A stretch of DNA of 64,000 nt. Origin: Candidatus Thorarchaeota archaeon. GTDB taxonomy: Archaea; Asgardarchaeota; Thorarchaeia; Thorarchaeales; Thorarchaeaceae. Of this stretch, positions 3,465 to 10,795 are shown piece by piece; position 1 is the first letter of the stretch; each line of letters opens with the position of its first letter. The DNA is taken from contig JBHLQH010000010.1 in NCBI GenBank assembly GCA_048884965.1, positions 51,956-115,955 of the forward strand. The letters are read 5' to 3'. A program made the translations under genes and the position numbers. A model generated the notes under the pieces. It was given only the letters and a program-made list of their open reading frames with translations. It did not search any database and was not told the origin of the DNA.

Positions 3465-5744
3465 TCAAATCACATTTTCGATTGAAGGAAGAATCATAGA
3501 GATCATGACTTGTATCAAATCTACGTCTGTTTGAATTTGACTTGTCAAGAGTGAGCCTTTGATTTGCTGGACAATAAGTCGAGCTACCTGGAAACCAAGG
3601 GTGGCCTCGATATAACCGATAGGGCTTGGACCAATCTTCTTACTGAACTCATCAGAATCTACCATTGAGAACGGTATCTCAATTGAAACATTCCAATATG
3701 GGGTTCCTCGATTCATCTCAGAATCTATGGAGAGGGCCAGTTCTCGTCGATACGATGGGATCTCGAGGGCAACATACAAGAGATTGAGTACTGCTCCAAA
3801 GAGGAGCTCATTGGCCATGACAAAAGATCTATTCTCCGAGGGCCTAAAACGAATAAGGGTGTCTGGTCTTCGGGCACTATGCGTCACAATGTCAAGGGCA
3901 CTAACTACGGTAGCAATGAGATTAGTTGGTTGTACTGGACGTTCAGCCCAGTTGTCGCTCTCATTCATTAGGCGAACATTCTCGATGAGTTGCTCAGTAA
4001 GAGAAACTGCGGTTCGTGCATCAGATAACAAACGTTCTTGGTCCATAGAAGTGTGATCTTTTGAAGAAAGAAGCTCGAGTGTTGTAAGGGTCATCTGGTT
4101 GTAGTTGGTGATGTCATGCATGAGAAGATCAGCATAAAGCCTAGCTCGCATATGAGATACTCCTACATCACGAGCTGCACTGATGTATAGAGCCACTAAA
4201 ATAGAAGGACCAACCAAGAGACTACCGAAGAGGAAAATCTCAGAAACCCACCAGCCTGGAGTAAAGTAATCGTAGAAACTTTTCAATGTGATAGGAACAA
4301 TCCAAGAGGCGAGGAAACCAACGACATACATCTCAAAGGAGGGCTTGCCTTTACTCAAATTGGCAAGGAGAAGCAGAAGATATGCATAACCGATGAATAC
4401 AAAGTAATTGCAGACCAACAACAATCCATTTCCTAGGAGTCCAGATTGCAATATAGGGTAAATCCTGATAATCAACTGATTTGTGACTTCTCCAATATAA
4501 ACAGCAGAAGCATAGAATATCGAATAGATGAATAGATTGAGAAATGAGAAGAAACTAGATTCCTCATTGTTCTGACCTCGAAGGCTTTTCTGAACCTTAT
4601 AGAGAAGCTGTAGCGTTAAAACCCCACCAATAAGATATGGCACGGTTGGTTCACCAGCCACTATTGTGCCAAATACAAAGAGAGAGAATGTCGATGCCAA
4701 AGTGACAGCTGACCATACTACAAAAACAAGAACCAAATAGAAATGAATCAATGAAGGTTTCAATCTCGAGTAAGCGAAGAGCAAGATAGCCATTATCGCT
4801 GATAGAATGCTAGCTCCAAAGTGAATTATCGAGTATGCAAGGAAATTCCCTACTTCGAAAGGATCTGTCAGACCAACTGATTCTATAATTGTCGTTATCA
4901 ATAGTGGTAGATACGCAGTCAAAGCTAAAGAGATGATAATAAGATAGCGCGTAAGTCTGGTGTAGGAATGTTTCCGAAGGTATGGCATGCCAAAGGTGAT
5001 GCCATAGAGAAAGAGAGCAGCTATCAGAAGATTCTCCGCGAAAATCCAAGAATCAGAGTTGGTCAGGAAAGCATTGATAGTTATTGCAGAAGCAATCGAT
5101 ATGAGGATAGATGCTCCGGTTAAATATCCTCGATCCAAGGAAAAATGATCACATCTCTTCCAGCATATAATTGGCTGAAGAAGAAAACTCCCACAGATTA
5201 TGGCAGCTAATGTTACTGGCAATACTCCATCAACAGATACAACAAGTAGAGGCTCAATGAAGAAGTAGGCAAGACCATAGAGTGATACTGGAACTGAAAG
5301 CAGGATCGAGAGGAACATCCAGGATTGCTTTCTTGTTGCAATCTCAAAACCCCTATTGCCTGATAGAAATCCTAGCAATAGAAAAATACCTGTCAAGCAT
5401 AGCTCGATCAAAGTCACGAAATGATCTTTTGGACCAACAGCCATCACCTCTTGAGACAAAATTAGGAATGCCAATGCGTGGTCTATCTTTGAGAACACAT
5501 AGAATAGAAAAGCAACTAAAAAGAAGCATCTCGATATGGATTTCCTATCTTGGGTGTTGATGAGCAGTACTACAGCAGAAATAGATGCCCAATAGGCAAG
5601 AATAGAGTGAACAGCTAGACGTGTCCGATAGGAGAGGGAAACAATTCCTGCTCCACTGAGGGCAAAATAGGTGGATATTATTGCTAGTGGTACGAGGAGG
5701 AGAACCTTGAAGATATCTCTTCTATTACCCACTAACATCTTCAA
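3465..5744 (-). CDS. Polytopic membrane protein with a C-terminal degenerate histidine kinase (HisKA plus eroded HATPase_c)
   Basis: About 14 hydrophobic segments, then H-box LYADLLMHDITNYNQ. The N-box is degenerate (NLLYVALE), there is no DxGxG, and the G2-like segment reads TLGFQVARLIVQQIKG. Confidence 0.75.
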   Translation of the reverse strand: MKMLVGNRRDIFKVLLLVPLAIISTYFALSGAGIVSLSYRTRLAVHSILAYWASISAVVLLINTQDRKSISRCFFLVAFLFYVFSKIDHALAFLILSQEVMAVGPKDHFVTLIELCLTGIFLLLGFLSGNRGFEIATRKQSWMFLSILLSVPVSLYGLAYFFIEPLLVVSVDGVLPVTLAAIICGSFLLQPIICWKRCDHFSLDRGYLTGASILISIASAITINAFLTNSDSWIFAENLLIAALFLYGITFGMPYLRKHSYTRLTRYLIIISLALTAYLPLLITTIIESVGLTDPFEVGNFLAYSIIHFGASILSAIMAILLFAYSRLKPSLIHFYLVLVFVVWSAVTLASTFSLFVFGTIVAGEPTVPYLIGGVLTLQLLYKVQKSLRGQNNEESSFFSFLNLFIYSIFYASAVYIGEVTNQLIIRIYPILQSGLLGNGLLLVCNYFVFIGYAYLLLLLANLSKGKPSFEMYVVGFLASWIVPITLKSFYDYFTPGWWVSEIFLFGSLLVGPSILVALYISAARDVGVSHMRARLYADLLMHDITNYNQMTLTTLELLSSKDHTSMDQERLLSDARTAVSLTEQLIENVRLMNESDNWAERPVQPTNLIATVVSALDIVTHSARRPDTLIRFRPSENRSFVMANELLFGAVLNLLYVALEIPSYRRELALSIDSEMNRGTPYWNVSIEIPFSMVDSDEFSKKIGPSPIGYIEATLGFQVARLIVQQIKGSLLTSQIQTDVDLIQVMISMILPSIENVI

Positions 5745-6267
5745 TCCCCTTCATGGAAATGCAAAATGAGATAAAAGCTAATCTTAGATGGTCAATTGAA
5801 TGTGCAAATCGCTTCAAAGTAGATTCTTGGAAAATCCTGCAGTTCCATTTTAGCTATCGTAACGAACAATACCGCCAATCCATACATCGAAATTCAAATA
5901 GCTAGAAGATAAGGAGAATTTTCCTTAGTCCGTCGCTTAGCGAGTCTGTTCGGAATTGATTCCTAGTTGCATAGCGGAATGGCAGTGCTCGAATATGAAA
6001 ATGCTTTTGCGTAGTTCAAGTGTTTTATTCACTAACTGAAAGAATATTTGACAGATATACTCAAGAAAAGACCATATTGATAACATTCATTTATTATATT
6101 AGGCAATGAATTTAATAATATAATCGATTAAGTAGATTTCTAACCATAAGGTATTATTTGATTTCCATTTGTAAACAAGAAATGAATATAAAGAAGGGGA
6201 GCATGCAGATGAGTTGTGCGAATGCTAGACTCAGTGGTACGTTGGGAAAGCATCGAGGAAAGATGAT

Positions 6268-7557
6268 ATGGATCCCGACTACACCAGGATATTAGAAGAA
6301 ATAAAGTCGACTCTAAGAAAGAATCCTAGGGGTATGACAATAATAGATTTGGCAAATTCGCTTGATATTAACAGAAATACTATGGCCAAATATCTAGATG
6401 TTCTTCAGATAGGTGGAAATGTTGATTCATTCAGAATTGGCCCTGCAAAGATCTACACAATATCTAATCGAGTTCCGGTTCAAGCTATGCTTAATTTGCA
6501 TGACGATGGAATCTTGCTGATTGATGGTTCAATGCATATTATATCAGTCAATGAGACCTTTTGTGAGATAGTAAATCTCAATCGGAGTGACATCATAGGT
6601 GAATCTGTTGAAGGGTGGGTCCATTTTTACGAAAATTCGCAGGAGATATTTAATGCCTTTCGAATAGCAATAGGTGGATTACCTTCAGAGATGAATGTCG
6701 ATATTGTTTCACATGATAGGAAACGTCATGTATTCTGTAAGTTTGTTCCCACAACATTTGATGATGGTTCAAAGGGAGCTACACTAATTGTGAGTGATGA
6801 AACTGAGAAATACCTTCGACAAGAGCAGATTGCCAAATCTGAGGAACGGTATCGAATACTCGTTGAGAATATCCATGATGGTATGTACATACTTCAAAAA
6901 GAATCCATTATGTTTTGCAACACCGCTTTGTGTGATATCTTGCAAATGACAAACGAGGAGATTATTGGAACCAATATTTGGGAATTCATCCATCCCGAGG
7001 ATTTAGAATGGACTACTGCAGAGTATTACAAAAGACTTGCTGGTATAGAAGGATCAAACGAATTCGTTGTTCGTCTCATTAGGAAAAATGGAGAAGTAAT
7101 TCTCGTAAGCAGTAGAACAAGTATTATCGATTATAATGGAGATACAGCTATACTGGGTATAATCAGAGACATAACTAATCAAACTAATCTGAGAACCCTT
7201 CTTATCAAATCGCATGAAATCATGCTTGATATTCTGGATCCTCTTGAAATCCCAATCTATGTCGTAGATTCCAATACCTATGAAGTGGTTTTTGCTAATC
7301 AGAAAGTCATCGAGTTAATGGGGAATGTATTAGGAAAGATGTGCTGGAAAGTATTTCATGAGAACTCAGAAGGTCCTTGCTCTGCTTGCGTACGCACAAA
7401 AGAAGCAAATCTTACACAAGAGGAGAAGTTCAGTGACATTGAAGGTTGCTCGGAGGAATATAGCACGATGGGCGGAAATAGCTACAGATTTTTCACAAAG
7501 CGAATATTGTGGAAGGATTTCAGACTATGCAGAATAACTGTCGGATATGAGAACTGA
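6268..7557 (+). CDS. Winged-HTH plus multiple PAS-domain sensory regulator
   Basis: N-terminal GMTIIDLANSLDINRNTMAKYLDVL (HTH). PAS signatures SEERYRILVENIHDGMYI, IHPED and GIIRDIT. A third PAS-like domain carries Cys residues (CWKVF..GPCSAC). Confidence 0.88.
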   Translation: MDPDYTRILEEIKSTLRKNPRGMTIIDLANSLDINRNTMAKYLDVLQIGGNVDSFRIGPAKIYTISNRVPVQAMLNLHDDGILLIDGSMHIISVNETFCEIVNLNRSDIIGESVEGWVHFYENSQEIFNAFRIAIGGLPSEMNVDIVSHDRKRHVFCKFVPTTFDDGSKGATLIVSDETEKYLRQEQIAKSEERYRILVENIHDGMYILQKESIMFCNTALCDILQMTNEEIIGTNIWEFIHPEDLEWTTAEYYKRLAGIEGSNEFVVRLIRKNGEVILVSSRTSIIDYNGDTAILGIIRDITNQTNLRTLLIKSHEIMLDILDPLEIPIYVVDSNTYEVVFANQKVIELMGNVLGKMCWKVFHENSEGPCSACVRTKEANLTQEEKFSDIEGCSEEYSTMGGNSYRFFTKRILWKDFRLCRITVGYEN

Positions 7558-7572
7558 TTTTTTTCGATTTTT
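7557..7572 (+). terminator. Oligo-T archaeal terminator-like tract
   Basis: TTTTTTT and TTTTT runs directly after the TGA stop of the HTH-PAS gene. Confidence 0.45.
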
Positions 7573-7718
7573 CGAGATATACGCACGGCAGTATAGCACG
7601 GAGCTTTTGCCATTTGCTTATGCTGAACGTATTCGCTTTGCCACCATTGCCTTATTAGTAAAATAACATCACCATAGAGAACAGGAATATGTCTACAGTA
7701 TTCCTCAAGGTGAACAAT

Positions 7719-8195
7719 ATGGAATACAAACAATTACTCGATGTTTCCAATCTCATTGTCGCATCTATAGCGAGATCGATCACCCGAATGGGACTAAGTG
7801 GTGATCTCATTATCGCTCAAGTTGCAACAGAGATGGAATCCGATGATATCCAGAAGACAATTGCTCACTCGGGACTTGAAGTGACGGGGACCGATGTGGA
7901 TAGTGTGTTGAATTCTTTTAATATGCAGATGACAAAATTGGGAGCCGTTCAGAAAATCGATATTCAGAAGACCTCTGATACTGAGGTTATAATTCGCCTC
8001 AGTGACTGCGGGCTGATTCCCGCGACACAATTGATTCGAGGGAATAATCCAACGCTAATTCCACCATGTGCTTGGATGGCCTTACTATCTTCATCAGTCG
8101 AGAAGAATACTGAGAATACCTCCGTTATATCAGCGTGCCAATGGAAAGCTGATTCAAACACATGCGAATTCACAGTCTTGATGGAGGCAAAGTAG
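7719..8195 (+). CDS. V4R / methanogen-output-domain-like small ligand-binding protein
   Basis: C-terminal IRLSDC...PPCAWMALLSSSVE...TCEFTV pattern with the three-Cys spacing of V4R/MetOD folds. AGGTGA RBS precedes ATG 7719. Confidence 0.62.
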   Translation: MEYKQLLDVSNLIVASIARSITRMGLSGDLIIAQVATEMESDDIQKTIAHSGLEVTGTDVDSVLNSFNMQMTKLGAVQKIDIQKTSDTEVIIRLSDCGLIPATQLIRGNNPTLIPPCAWMALLSSSVEKNTENTSVISACQWKADSNTCEFTVLMEAK

Positions 8196-8340
8196 TTGTC
8201 AACTTCAGACTGCAAATATGCAGGTGAAACAAATCCTCAAGGCCTGATATGGTGCGGCAAGAAGAACATCTACGTTTCTGGGAAAGAAAAGGAAACGTGT
8301 GAATATTACACAAAGGAGTGAACATAAGAAGGTGTCAGAA

Positions 8341-8703
8341 ATGAGTGCTAAAAGCAAGAAACTGAAAGATACTCTAAAAGAACTACAATCAAATAGTGAC
8401 GTTGACGGATGCGCATTGGTTAGCGACAGAGGTCAGGTGATGAGCTCTGCGCTGGCTGCAGATGTTGATGAGAAGGCTGTCGGTGCAATGGCGGCTGCTC
8501 TAGTATCAATTGGTAGCAGAGTTGGAACTGCATTGGGATCTGGTGCGCCTAAGAGTATAGTCATCGAAGGGAATGGATGCACAATTATTCTCAGGAAAAT
8601 CCGTGATACAGCTCTGATTGGCACAGCACCTGTTGATGCAAAATTAGGGCTGATTGATTTCGAGATGAGTAAAACAGCCCAGACTATAGAGGAAATTCTA
8701 TAG
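8341..8703 (+). CDS. Roadblock/LC7 (MglB-like) protein
   Basis: VDGCALVSDRGQVMSSAL, AVGAMAAALVSIG and AKLGLIDFEM motifs. Start at ATG 8341 after AGGTG. Confidence 0.92.
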   Translation: MSAKSKKLKDTLKELQSNSDVDGCALVSDRGQVMSSALAADVDEKAVGAMAAALVSIGSRVGTALGSGAPKSIVIEGNGCTIILRKIRDTALIGTAPVDAKLGLIDFEMSKTAQTIEEIL

Positions 8704-8749
8704 TTCATTCCAAACAATCCATAGACATACTTTGAGAGGGACCGTAAAG

Positions 8750-9421
8750 ATGGAAAGACATAGACTGAAAGCATATGACTACAAGGTCTTCATAACAGGA
8801 GCCTTTCAATCCGGAAAATCAACTTTGATACACACTCTCGACCCCGATACAATTTCAGTAGAACGAGACATGAAAGAAGAATATCGAGGTGAAAAAGGTA
8901 GCACAACAACAGGTTTTGACCTAGGTAGGGTAATTTGGGTTAGAAAGGAGTCACATCACACCGGCCTTATTATTCCGAAAAAGCAGTTCCAACTTGAAAA
9001 AAGTGAGTATGAAAATTGGATTGTCAAAGAGATCGAGCTGCGAGGCGTTCCTGGTCAGCTTCATTTCAGATTCATCCGCGATACCATGCGATCAAACACG
9101 AATGGAATCCTCACCATCGTTGATTCATCAGATCTGGGAATGATCGGAGATGCAACAGCGATTCTTGCTGAGAATGAAATCACCTTTGATGCAACCCCTC
9201 AGGTGGTCATTGCAAACAAGCAAGATAGAGAAGACGCTGTAGCTCCCGAAGTCGTTGCAGGATGGTTTGGAATAGAAGAAACCTTTGGAGCAATTGGTAA
9301 GGACCAAGAATCAGCTCAAGGAGCTTTAATCTCTCTTTTGAAGAAGATTGAAGCTCCTCTGCATTCATCTTCAGAAGGTACCTACACCATGAATACAATC
9401 ATAGGAGATATACTGGAATGA
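8750..9421 (+). CDS. Small GTPase, MglA/CvnD-type
   Basis: G1 GAFQSGKST, G2 STTTGFDLG, G3 GVPGQ, G4 ANKQD; flanked by roadblock genes. Confidence 0.9.
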   Translation: MERHRLKAYDYKVFITGAFQSGKSTLIHTLDPDTISVERDMKEEYRGEKGSTTTGFDLGRVIWVRKESHHTGLIIPKKQFQLEKSEYENWIVKEIELRGVPGQLHFRFIRDTMRSNTNGILTIVDSSDLGMIGDATAILAENEITFDATPQVVIANKQDREDAVAPEVVAGWFGIEETFGAIGKDQESAQGALISLLKKIEAPLHSSSEGTYTMNTIIGDILE

Positions 9422-9870
9422 ACGACGAATTTGTTATCCCACCATTGAAGATGATTAAGAGTGAAGTTGCTAATTTTGTACAACACATTCCAATATGGAC
9501 AATCACTCTCTTTACGGTAGATGGTTATGTCCTTGAACACAGATCGAATAACATGAATTTGCCTCAGGAAATCGAATTAATAATCAGCAGCATGTCTGCA
9601 GGGTTAATCACAATAGCTGAGGATATGATTCGGATGGTCGATCATAGCAAGCTGTTTAGTCAAGTTATTGTGGATTCAGAGAACGTATCGGATAATGAGA
9701 ATTTTTCCATTCTTCTTAGGCAAATAGCAGATAATATTCTATTGGCATGTGTCTTTCCCAACTCGACACATTTAGGATTAATCACATTTGAAATTCAGGA
9801 ACTGACCAATAGGATAAGAGATATTGTCAGTCAATGGGATATAAAACTGCATGAAGAAACCATGACATAA
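9418..9870 (+). CDS. Divergent roadblock/LC7-domain protein
   Basis: TLFTVDGYVL, ISSMSAGLITIAE and THLGLITFEI match the roadblock pattern. ATGA overlap with the GTPase gene. Confidence 0.75.
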   Translation: MNDEFVIPPLKMIKSEVANFVQHIPIWTITLFTVDGYVLEHRSNNMNLPQEIELIISSMSAGLITIAEDMIRMVDHSKLFSQVIVDSENVSDNENFSILLRQIADNILLACVFPNSTHLGLITFEIQELTNRIRDIVSQWDIKLHEETMT

Positions 9871-9883
9871 GGGGGCTCTCAAG

Positions 9884-10306
9884 TTGCAGGTCGGTACATT
9901 GGAAAGACTAGAGAATGTATTAAGCAGAATGAGTAACGACGGTTTCAACATTCAAGCTAGCGTTGTAATTAACGAAAGAGGACTTACAATGGCAAGTATG
10001 GCACACAGAAATTGGTCAGCTGATAAAATCGCAGCGATGGTTTCGTTAATTTCCGATGGCGCTACACGAGCATTATCCAATCTCAGTATGGGATCTCTTT
10101 CAACTATTTCAATAGCCTCGGAAAAGGCAACTCTATGGATTGCTGAGTTCGATGTGAACGAAAGACAATATAGAATAGCAATAATACTAGGTCACGGACC
10201 TCTCAGAATTAGATCATTTTGGGATAGAGTGCGGAACCGCGACTTCGTTACCACAATATTGTTGCCTTCAGCTAAGAAAATTCAGAATATACTTGGAGGA
10301 AGCTGA
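9884..10306 (+). CDS. Divergent roadblock/LC7-domain protein
   Basis: IQASVVINERGLTMAS, DKIAAMVSLI and LSMGSLSTISI motifs; TTG start after a G-rich RBS. Confidence 0.78.
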   Translation: MQVGTLERLENVLSRMSNDGFNIQASVVINERGLTMASMAHRNWSADKIAAMVSLISDGATRALSNLSMGSLSTISIASEKATLWIAEFDVNERQYRIAIILGHGPLRIRSFWDRVRNRDFVTTILLPSAKKIQNILGGS

Positions 10307-10372
10307 AACTTCCTTCGACATCTTAAATTTTCGTCAGTACAGCAATCGAAAAACCAATGATATAGATGCAAT

Positions 10373-10795
10373 TCACATATCCAAGCATGTTGAGAGTGAA
10401 GAAAGATTCTCAAGAAATCCGTATAGGCATTCATTGCAAACATTAGCATGGTTGCCATGTGATTTTCCAGTAAGCATTTCGACAGCATCTATAAGATCAA
10501 TTGGATTCACAAGTCGATTCTTAATAACTACGTCTTTCCCCTTTGAAATGCAAACAAGCTTGCTCTTCTCAGTTTCGATCCGGAGAAGCTGAAAGCATGC
10601 ATTATTCGACTTTGCCTCGAGAAGTCCTTTTCCAATCGAGTCACCTGTTAAGAGCTCTGGCTCCAACGGGATGTACTCAATGGTGGTTATTTGATCATTA
10701 TTCATACAAAGCATTTCCCCATCTGACTCCTTGAAACATGGACAACCCTTGACAATATCATGGAGGTCCATGCGTTGGATAGAACTTCTCGTCAA
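10373..10795 (-). CDS. Hypothetical Cys-rich protein (possible metal binding)
   Basis: TTG start with GGAGG RBS; contains CPC, CNEC and further Cys residues; convergent with the roadblock operon. Confidence 0.65.
   Translation of the reverse strand: MTRSSIQRMDLHDIVKGCPCFKESDGEMLCMNNDQITTIEYIPLEPELLTGDSIGKGLLEAKSNNACFQLLRIETEKSKLVCISKGKDVVIKNRLVNPIDLIDAVEMLTGKSHGNHANVCNECLYGFLENLSSLSTCLDM

Follow-up and report, generated by a model that had tools for sequence, protein, structure and literature searches.

A candidate G-protein signalling gene cluster with three roadblock paralogues in Asgard archaea

The closest described counterparts of the gene cluster reported here are systems in which a small GTPase is coupled to roadblock proteins. 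The actinobacterial conservons consist of a kinase, a roadblock GTPase-activating protein (GAP), a third protein for which the role of guanine nucleotide exchange factor (GEF) is now reported, and a GTPase. Groups 2-5 of the MglA family were defined by the G3 motif GTPGQ and by a Thr that replaces the Arg finger (Wuichet and Sogaard-Andersen, 2014, PMC4316618). A dimer of MglB serves as GAP for the single MglA that it binds, systems with two coupled MglBs (1:2 MglA:MglB) have already been described, and an Asp-Gly pair is the sole conserved feature reported for MglBs coupled to group 2-5 MglA (PMC4316618). Asgard archaea encode many small GTPases, roadblock or longin proteins and TRAPPC3-like proteins. 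The GTPase genes of MK-D1 generally lie outside operons with roadblock, longin and TRAPPC3 genes, which makes partner matching difficult (PMC10933270), and a 2016 review named the study of Loki GTPase operons among the questions still open (PMC4917890). The notable conserved neighbourhoods of eukaryotic signature proteins described by Liu et al. are an ESCRT operon and an operon with LAMTOR1-like, Rab-like and DENN genes; the cluster described here does not appear in the main text of that work. Here we describe an Asgard gene cluster that names likely GTPase partners. It lies in a 64,000-nucleotide stretch of a Candidatus Thorarchaeota genome from a sediment metagenome (assembly GCA_048884965.1, contig JBHLQH010000010.1, positions 51,956 to 115,955), which we call the window and by whose numbering all coordinates are given.

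Region 6268-10306 of the window is, with fair probability, a copy of a G-protein signalling gene cluster that is conserved in Asgard archaea. It encodes a regulator with helix-turn-helix (HTH) and PAS domains, a protein with a V4R/TRAPPC3 fold, a small GTPase and three roadblock proteins (RB1, RB2, and RB3), and the best reading of the whole is a conservon-like or MglA/MglB-like G-protein signalling operon. Observed are the homology or fold of each part, the conserved gene order and the operon-like spacing. No description of this cluster was found in the searchable literature. New here are the variant with a TRAPPC3-like protein outside the Pfam families, its HTH-PAS partner, and a negative result on the membrane pseudokinase encoded alongside.

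Conserved order and layout of the cluster

A first search of 40 relatives recovered orthologues with 58-70% identity in eight genomes, and a second copy in the present genome. Wider sampling gave 53 loci annotated with profiles, 37 of them with an orthologous GTPase. The order RB1, GTPase, RB2, RB3 was retained in 33 of these 37 loci, among them the second copy in the present genome and loci of Hermodarchaeota and other Asgard families. The longer co-oriented run, with HTH-PAS and the V4R-fold gene before the core, is likewise a conserved unit among Asgard relatives, and in many loci, some of them from other Asgard families, a V4R-like gene precedes RB1. A preliminary description of the window, made from its sequence alone, had proposed that these genes form a module, a proposal that depended on the gene order being kept in relatives, and the survey bears it out on this point. 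The four exceptions are a clade of solo GTPase paralogues that have also lost the catalytic Gln. RB2 and RB3 genes were adjacent in every case and RB2 always followed the GTPase gene; RB1 was usually upstream, directly before the GTPase gene in most loci, and a fourth, RB1-like roadblock gene (RB4) often followed RB3. About two-thirds of the loci had a V4R-fold gene, either TRAPPC3-like or of the XylR_N+V4R type, next to the core. No more than 13 roadblock genes detectable with Pfam occur in the whole genome and the order recurs in dozens of loci, so that the cluster is more than a product of chance.

The record titles of the loci include Thorarchaeota, Hermodarchaeota, 'Promethearchaeota', as well as Asgardarchaeum abyssi. 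Other Asgard families also show the sequence V4R-like, RB1, GTPase, RB2, RB3 (loci L047 and L048), and a rearranged form of the V4R-like, roadblock and GTPase set was found in L044 and L089. The fullest layout seen elsewhere comprises a winged HTH (wHTH) gene, HTH-PAS, V4R-like, RB1, GTPase, RB2, RB3, a PAS histidine kinase and another wHTH gene. The second and fuller copy in the present genome (L020; G000:C47:4700-15400) reads wHTH, RB1, GTPase (65% identical to that of the window), RB2, RB3, RB4, wHTH, and has as neighbours a divergent REC-PAS-HATPase_c hybrid kinase gene and a Pfam-type V4R gene.

Two further arrangements were seen. The rearranged loci L044 (G219:C69) and L089, which belong to another Asgard family, split the cluster into two divergent units, one with V4R-like, RB1, RB2 and a 529-aa RB3-containing protein and the other with the GTPase and RB2; the 529-aa form of RB3 has a large additional region. 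Distant relatives of the GTPase (33-36% identical) were found at L090-L092 and L094 in metagenome-assembled genomes (MAGs) labelled Thermoproteota (one isolate 'Kor4') or Nitrososphaerota, and in three of these four loci the GTPase was paired with one RB1-like gene. This pairing with a single roadblock gene suggests that the Asgard system with its 1:3 ratio had a simpler, 1:1 GTPase:roadblock ancestor.

The features of the window locus are as follows.

6268-7557, plus strand: HTH-PAS regulator, 429 aa
7719-8195, plus strand: V4R/TRAPPC3-fold protein, 158 aa from the likely start; the open reading frame (ORF) opens at 7689 (168 aa)
8341-8703, plus strand: RB1, a canonical roadblock/LC7 (MglB-like) protein, 120 aa from the likely start; the ORF opens at 8299
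8750-9421, plus strand: small Ras-superfamily GTPase, 223 aa from the likely start; the ORF opens at 8732
9418-9870, plus strand: RB2, a divergent roadblock paralogue, 150 aa
9884-10306, plus strand: RB3, a divergent roadblock paralogue, 140 aa, beginning 13 nt past RB2
5745-6267: intergenic region between the divergent TMK and HTH-PAS genes, 523 bp, 35% GC, the presumed promoter site
3465-5744, minus strand: TMK, a multi-transmembrane histidine-kinase-like pseudokinase, 759 aa, a doubtful member of the module
10373-10795, minus strand: convergent ORF outside the module described, 140 aa, Cys-containing

The shorter starts at 7719, 8341, and 8750 were preferred on the basis of orthologue alignments and public gene calls. 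The start of RB2 overlaps the stop of the GTPase gene (ATGA, 9418-9421), and the core genes overlap or are spaced by about 25 nt or less, as in an operon. The ORF list confirmed all seven genes of the preliminary description at their coordinates, together with the ATGA overlap at 9418 and the AT-rich divergent spacer. The range first assigned to the locus was right in its genes but ran on to 10795 and so included the unrelated minus-strand ORF 10373-10795. That ORF had no Pfam or NCBIfam match and no tblastn match in 17 related loci; it is a called gene in the nearest relative, with 55% identity. The locus is flanked by genes for an aldo/keto reductase and a major facilitator superfamily transporter. 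A decayed wHTH gene was sought in the 523-bp spacer, on the side that wHTH genes hold elsewhere, and none was found. A scan for sigma-70 promoters gave background levels, the sigma-70 model not being meaningful for an archaeon.

The GTPase, the roadblock proteins and their companions

The GTPase consists of a single G domain, modelled with a predicted local distance difference test (pLDDT) score of 86.7, and matched the Pfam families Arf (1.9e-8) and ATP_bind_1 (2e-5). Its motifs are GAFQSGKS (G1), TTT (G2), GVPGQ (G3, with the Asp lost), and NKQD (G4), of which G1 and G4 are intact. An alignment of 17 sequences showed G99, P101, and G102 of G3 to be invariant, with Gln present in every copy coupled to roadblock genes; T52 and T53 of G2 were likewise invariant, within TTTTGFDLG and with no adjacent Arg. 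Ahead of beta3 the protein has a structured, well-modelled insert, about 35-40 aa long and specific to the family. Measured against the definition of MglA groups 2-5, the G3 motif agrees except for Val in place of Thr at position 2, the G2 Thr is present, and coupling to a roadblock gene is seen in the 33 of 37 loci in which roadblock genes flank the GTPase gene. By motif and genomic context the protein would thus be an MglA group 2-5-like GTPase. Searches for the subfamily gave a more mixed picture. The best fold matches were tied among Arf6 (Z 20.0), Rab (19.9) and MglA (18.1), and profile matches in the PDB, which covered the C-terminal half only, were to GerdArfR1 (1e-14), Arf (about 1e-11) and MglA (4e-9). 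Public annotations call the protein 'ADP-ribosylation factor-like' or 'SRP receptor beta'. The preliminary call of an MglA-type GTPase therefore stands as far as the group 2-5 motifs go, whereas neither sequence nor fold searches separate the protein from Arf and Rab.

The solo paralogues of the GTPase (L023, L024, and L025, the same as L082-L084) are 44-52% identical to it, have no roadblock neighbours, and carry GVPGM or GVPGS in place of the G3 motif with Gln. Loss of the catalytic Gln thus goes together with loss of the roadblock genes, as the copies coupled to roadblock genes all retain it. That the catalytic residue appears to track roadblock coupling counts in favour of a GTPase switch operated by the neighbouring roadblock proteins.

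RB1 is a canonical roadblock protein. It matched Pfam Robl_LC7 (PF03259) with an E-value of 2.5e-12 and 46.8 bits, well above the cut-off of 23 bits. In profile searches against the PDB the Asgard roadblocks 9jue (8e-21) and 7f8m (7e-19) were matched, along with CvnB5 (9e-6), MglB (2e-4) and LAMTOR2 (1e-3). Judged by eye from printed alignments, RB1 shares about one-third of its residues with the solved Asgard proteins 7f8m and 9jue. RB2 had no Pfam match, and RB3 scored 19.2 bits against Robl_LC7, under the cut-off. Comparison of families by hhalign nevertheless linked both to RB1, RB2 with a probability of 98.5% (E 3.5e-15 over 118 columns) and RB3 with a probability of 97.5% (E 5e-12). Profiles of RB2 also matched 7f8m (1.3e-7) and MglB (1.5e-3) in the PDB, and those of RB3 matched 9jue (7e-4) and CvnB5 (5e-3). 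On these profile comparisons RB2 and RB3 are roadblock homologues, and the preliminary identification of the two as roadblocks holds at the level of homology. A direct comparison of the RB2 and RB3 profiles was not significant, the two being linked only through RB1; the lack of a direct match marks the three roadblocks, as judged from their profiles, as old, anciently diverged paralogues. RB1 retains the Asp-Gly pair of MglBs from group 2-5 systems (VDG), as does RB2 (invariant D35 G36), a point in favour of MglB-like contacts, whereas RB3 has Glu-Arg-Gly in its place and a basic C-terminal extension. The difference between Asp-Gly in RB1 and RB2 and Arg-Gly in RB3 hints that the paralogues may have unequal roles.

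The V4R-like protein was recognized by its fold. An AlphaFold2 model (pLDDT 86.8) had as its best match the Thorarchaeota TRAPPC3 structure 7yh2 (Z 10.2, root-mean-square deviation 3.6, 146 of 156 residues), followed by the yeast and fly Bet3-family subunits of TRAPP (3cue_B, Z 9.8; Bet3 2cfh, 9.2). Further matches were YslB, H-NOX, the V4R protein MJ1460 (2oso, 8.2) and PoxR (7.9), and Foldseek also ranked TRAPPC3 first. Sequence comparisons gave no link to these families: none of 44 family members matched Pfam V4R (PF02830) or Bet3 (PF04051), the family profile had no matches in the PDB, and hhalign against the Pfam-V4R family linked to the cluster was not significant (0.8%). At the level of the modelled fold, then, the ORF belongs to the V4R/Bet3/H-NOX superfamily with TRAPPC3 as its closest relative. 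The preliminary description had called it V4R-like, which is upheld for the fold but not for the sequence family. The family lacks a Pfam model and is small; a set of 1.84 billion proteins contains 46 of its representatives at 50% identity. It has two nearly invariant Cys, and the window copy has four. Thor TRAPPC3 carries a four-Cys Zn site (PMC10933270), which the putative four-Cys site of the window copy recalls. Two V4R-fold families that are unrelated by sequence associate with the module, one small and TRAPPC3-like and the other of the Pfam XylR_N+V4R type, and this repeated association counts for the G-protein operon.

The HTH-PAS regulator matched PAS_9 in Pfam (1e-24) and TIGR00229 in NCBIfam (2e-30). 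Of its three PAS domains two are clear and the one at the C-terminus is degenerate (1.8e-4), and its N-terminal winged HTH was weakly matched (HTH_24, 0.018). Its orthologues hold the equivalent position in L054, L056, L058, L067, and L071. In fuller loci all four boxes (H, N, G1, and G2) are intact in the PAS kinases encoded after RB3, which match HATPase_c, and other module copies have a divergent REC-PAS hybrid kinase. The recurrence of wHTH, HTH-PAS and intact HATPase_c kinase genes beside the core is a further point in favour of a signalling operon.

The divergent membrane pseudokinase

The TMK gene product has about 13-15 hydrophobic segments. It had no match in Pfam or NCBIfam, and hence none to HATPase_c or HAMP, and a phmmer search of residues 510-759 against the PDB returned nothing even at an E-value of 10. 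Its relationship to kinases rests on alignment to paralogues in the same genome and to intact kinases. In this alignment the His of the H-box was kept (LLMHDITNYNQ) and was conserved in all orthologues; the N-box reads NLLYVALE, with its Asn replaced, no G1 box is left, and of G2 only TLGF remains. Six TMK orthologues show equal losses of the N, G1, and G2 boxes, whereas paralogues in the genome keep all boxes. As aligned, TMK is a pseudokinase, in agreement with the preliminary reading. The family to which it belongs comprises multi-transmembrane histidine-kinase-like proteins of about 750-770 aa found mainly in the same archaeal family; Pfam has no model of their membrane part, and the window genome has at least five copies (contigs C22, C67, C31, and C1 among their sites). 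The family includes catalytically intact paralogues along with one dead orthologue group.

The preliminary description had suggested that the module, with this membrane protein included, may be a self-contained receptor and G-protein circuit. The distribution of TMK argues otherwise. Nine other genomes carry TMK orthologues on contigs without the module, and several genomes with a TMK orthologue have no orthologue of the module GTPase. Among the annotated loci, TMK adjoins the module only in the window and in the nearest relative, GCA_016840845.1 (L095), in which the GTPase is 92% identical and the TMK orthologue (L095:1146-3413, minus strand) is at the equivalent place. That orthologue has an in-frame TAA and is split into calls of 285 aa and 468 aa, which may reflect decay or a MAG error. 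Identity between the two genomes was 65% for TMK, 74% for HTH-PAS, and 84-92% for the V4R-like, roadblock, and GTPase genes. TMK is probably a lineage-specific neighbour and not a component of the module, and we regard its functional partnership with the module as unlikely. A self-contained receptor and G-protein circuit that includes TMK is unlikely in consequence, since TMK is not a conserved partner.

Proposed mechanism, alternatives and comparison with known systems

In the mechanism that we propose, the core would be the tight operon RB1-GTPase-RB2-RB3. The GTPase would be a single-domain protein of the MglA group 2-5 type, with its catalytic Gln kept and without an intrinsic Arg finger, and the three roadblock paralogues would set its nucleotide state by docking as dimers on its switch face. 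RB2 and RB3 would most likely form a heterodimer, as their genes are always adjacent, and RB1 would most likely form a homodimer, or a heterodimer with RB4 where the latter is present. One roadblock dimer would act as GAP and the other as GEF, co-GAP or scaffold. The TRAPPC3/V4R-fold protein would probably supply an input that depends on a small molecule or a metal, or else act as a scaffold. HTH-PAS would link the GTPase switch to transcription, as wHTH proteins would in other copies, where intact PAS histidine kinases would add a phosphorylation input. These kinase and wHTH inputs in other copies would make the system a functional analogue of the actinobacterial conservon. A complex prediction of RB2, RB3, and the GTPase with alignments scored 0.00, which speaks neither for nor against binding.

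Several observations weigh against this reading. The PDB profile matches of the GTPase favour Asgard ArfR/Arf (1e-14 to 1e-11) over MglA (4e-9), and the tied fold Z-scores leave its predicted subfamily inseparable from Arf or Rab. The pairing of RB2 with RB3 is drawn solely from their invariant adjacency, their profiles having no direct match. Sequence comparison ties the V4R-like protein to neither V4R nor Bet3, and its four-Cys site is not kept throughout the family. Distribution is patchy, an RB2 orthologue occurring in only about 20 of 59 genomes within the family, and the window copy is reduced, without the wHTH genes and PAS kinase of the fuller versions. Protein contacts, GAP and GEF roles, ligand sensing, and transcriptional output are all points that we infer.

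Among the alternatives, the 14-transmembrane TMK could be the dedicated receptor of the module after all, acting by contact or through a trans-phosphorylated His and, in this lineage, taking the place of the PAS kinases of other copies. TMK occupies the divergent slot that REC-PAS kinases fill in L020, L067, and L072; its DHp/CA domain is of the HDxxN subtype, as in the PAS kinases encoded after RB3 elsewhere; the window copy has lost its PAS kinases; and all members of the orthologue group keep the H-box His. Set against this are the nine genomes with off-module orthologues, several of them without a module GTPase orthologue, the lack of adjacency at any other locus beyond the nearest relative, and, in that relative, the in-frame stop and a TMK identity well below that of the module genes. 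Histidine-kinase-like genes are moreover very numerous in these genomes, which makes a chance adjacency plausible, and we judge a receptor role for TMK improbable. A second alternative gives the V4R-fold protein and the roadblock dimers the role of a TRAPP- or Ragulator-like platform, that is, a stable hetero-oligomer serving as GEF or localization scaffold, possibly at a membrane, and not as a ligand-gated sensor. Thor TRAPPC3 and then the TRAPP Bet3-family subunits are the best fold matches of the V4R-like model; the TRAPP core consists of Bet3-family subunits and a Rab-binding longin heterodimer, and Ragulator contains two roadblock heterodimers (PMC10933270), the number of pairs that copies with RB1+RB4 and RB2+RB3 would supply. 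The V4R-like protein, however, has no sequence homology to Bet3, and the fold Z of about 10 is shared with the folds of ligand binders, namely V4R, H-NOX, and YslB. Neither a LAMTOR1-like nor a Trs20-like partner was seen, a C-terminal roadblock domain of the Rag type is missing from the GTPase, and roughly one locus in three lacks a nearby V4R-fold gene. A platform of this kind appears quite unlikely.

We rate as similarly doubtful the bolder proposal that a single hetero-oligomeric exchange-factor platform is built from the TRAPPC3/V4R-fold protein, an RB2/RB3 heterodimer, an RB1 dimer, and the GTPase, and that this platform is an archaeal, operon-encoded structural forerunner of eukaryotic TRAPP and Ragulator, older than the divergence of the Asgard lineages. 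A polarity or motility switch of the MglA/MglB/MglC type would have the GTPase mark a pole or surface structure and the roadblocks restrict it, with transcription factors only regulating the operon. It draws on homology by family and on Myxococcus, in which MglB and the paralogous roadblock MglC are reported to act jointly on MglA. The conserved neighbourhood holds PAS, histidine kinase, wHTH, and V4R genes instead of motility, pilus or cytoskeleton genes, and such a switch is very unlikely indeed. The conservon-like or MglA/MglB-like signalling operon remains our preferred reading. On this reading the cluster offers a matched, evolutionarily stable set of one GTPase, three roadblock paralogues, a V4R-fold protein and regulators, all directly testable, which would show whether heteromeric roadblock platforms and Bet3-fold GTPase partners predate eukaryotes and whether archaea have conservon-type G-protein signalling.

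Compared with the actinobacterial conservon (CvnA-D/Mfp, MglA group 2), the Asgard cluster shares an operon-encoded GTPase with a Gly-x-Pro-Gly-Gln G3 motif, a roadblock/MglB partner, and, nearby, an HTH-type protein and a histidine-kinase-like sensor, with no response regulator as output. CvnB5 was matched by both the RB1 and RB3 profiles. The preliminary analogy to conservons was strengthened by the intact PAS histidine kinases and wHTH proteins of other module copies. Unlike the conservon with its one roadblock, the Asgard cluster has three and sometimes four; no CvnC/DUF742 match was found in the cluster ORFs scanned, and a V4R/TRAPPC3-fold protein is added. The kinases are soluble PAS kinases or absent, and the lineage is archaeal. 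CvnA has HAMP, an active HATPase and a C-terminal LPxR and is encoded in the same operon, whereas TMK is divergent, dead and non-syntenic and ends in LPSIENVI instead of an LPxR motif. In other copies a MarR-like wHTH family, unrelated to DUF742 and not present in the window, holds a place comparable to that of CvnC.

The MglA-MglB(-MglC) systems of Myxococcus and Thermus likewise couple a GTPase with a PGQ-type G3 motif to roadblock genes, and the MglB dimer as GAP provides the mechanistic template. The Asgard cluster differs in having no intrinsic Arg finger, a GTPase:roadblock ratio of 1:3 or 1:4 in fixed order, a GTPase insert of about 40 aa, and a sensory and transcriptional context in place of motility. 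With the TRAPP core and Ragulator it has in common a Bet3/V4R-fold subunit, roadblock- or longin-type dimers, and a small GTPase, and several distinct roadblock paralogues parallel LAMTOR2-5 of Ragulator. In contrast to TRAPP, its dimers would be of roadblocks and not longins, its GTPase would be no Rab, and its resemblance to Bet3 is at the level of fold only. In contrast to Ragulator-Rag, its GTPase has no roadblock domain of its own and no LAMTOR1-like tether gene is conserved in the neighbourhood, and the likeness to Ragulator is a resemblance in parts only.

The cluster is a new variant that belongs with neither the conservon nor Ragulator, as it lacks a CvnA-type kinase and DUF742 on the one side and a Rag-type GTPase and tether on the other. 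In kind and in phylum its proteins agree with the Asgard roadblocks, TRAPPC3 and small GTPases for which structures exist (Tran et al., 2024, PMC10933270), and unlike the GTPase genes of MK-D1 treated in that work its genes are clustered and syntenic.

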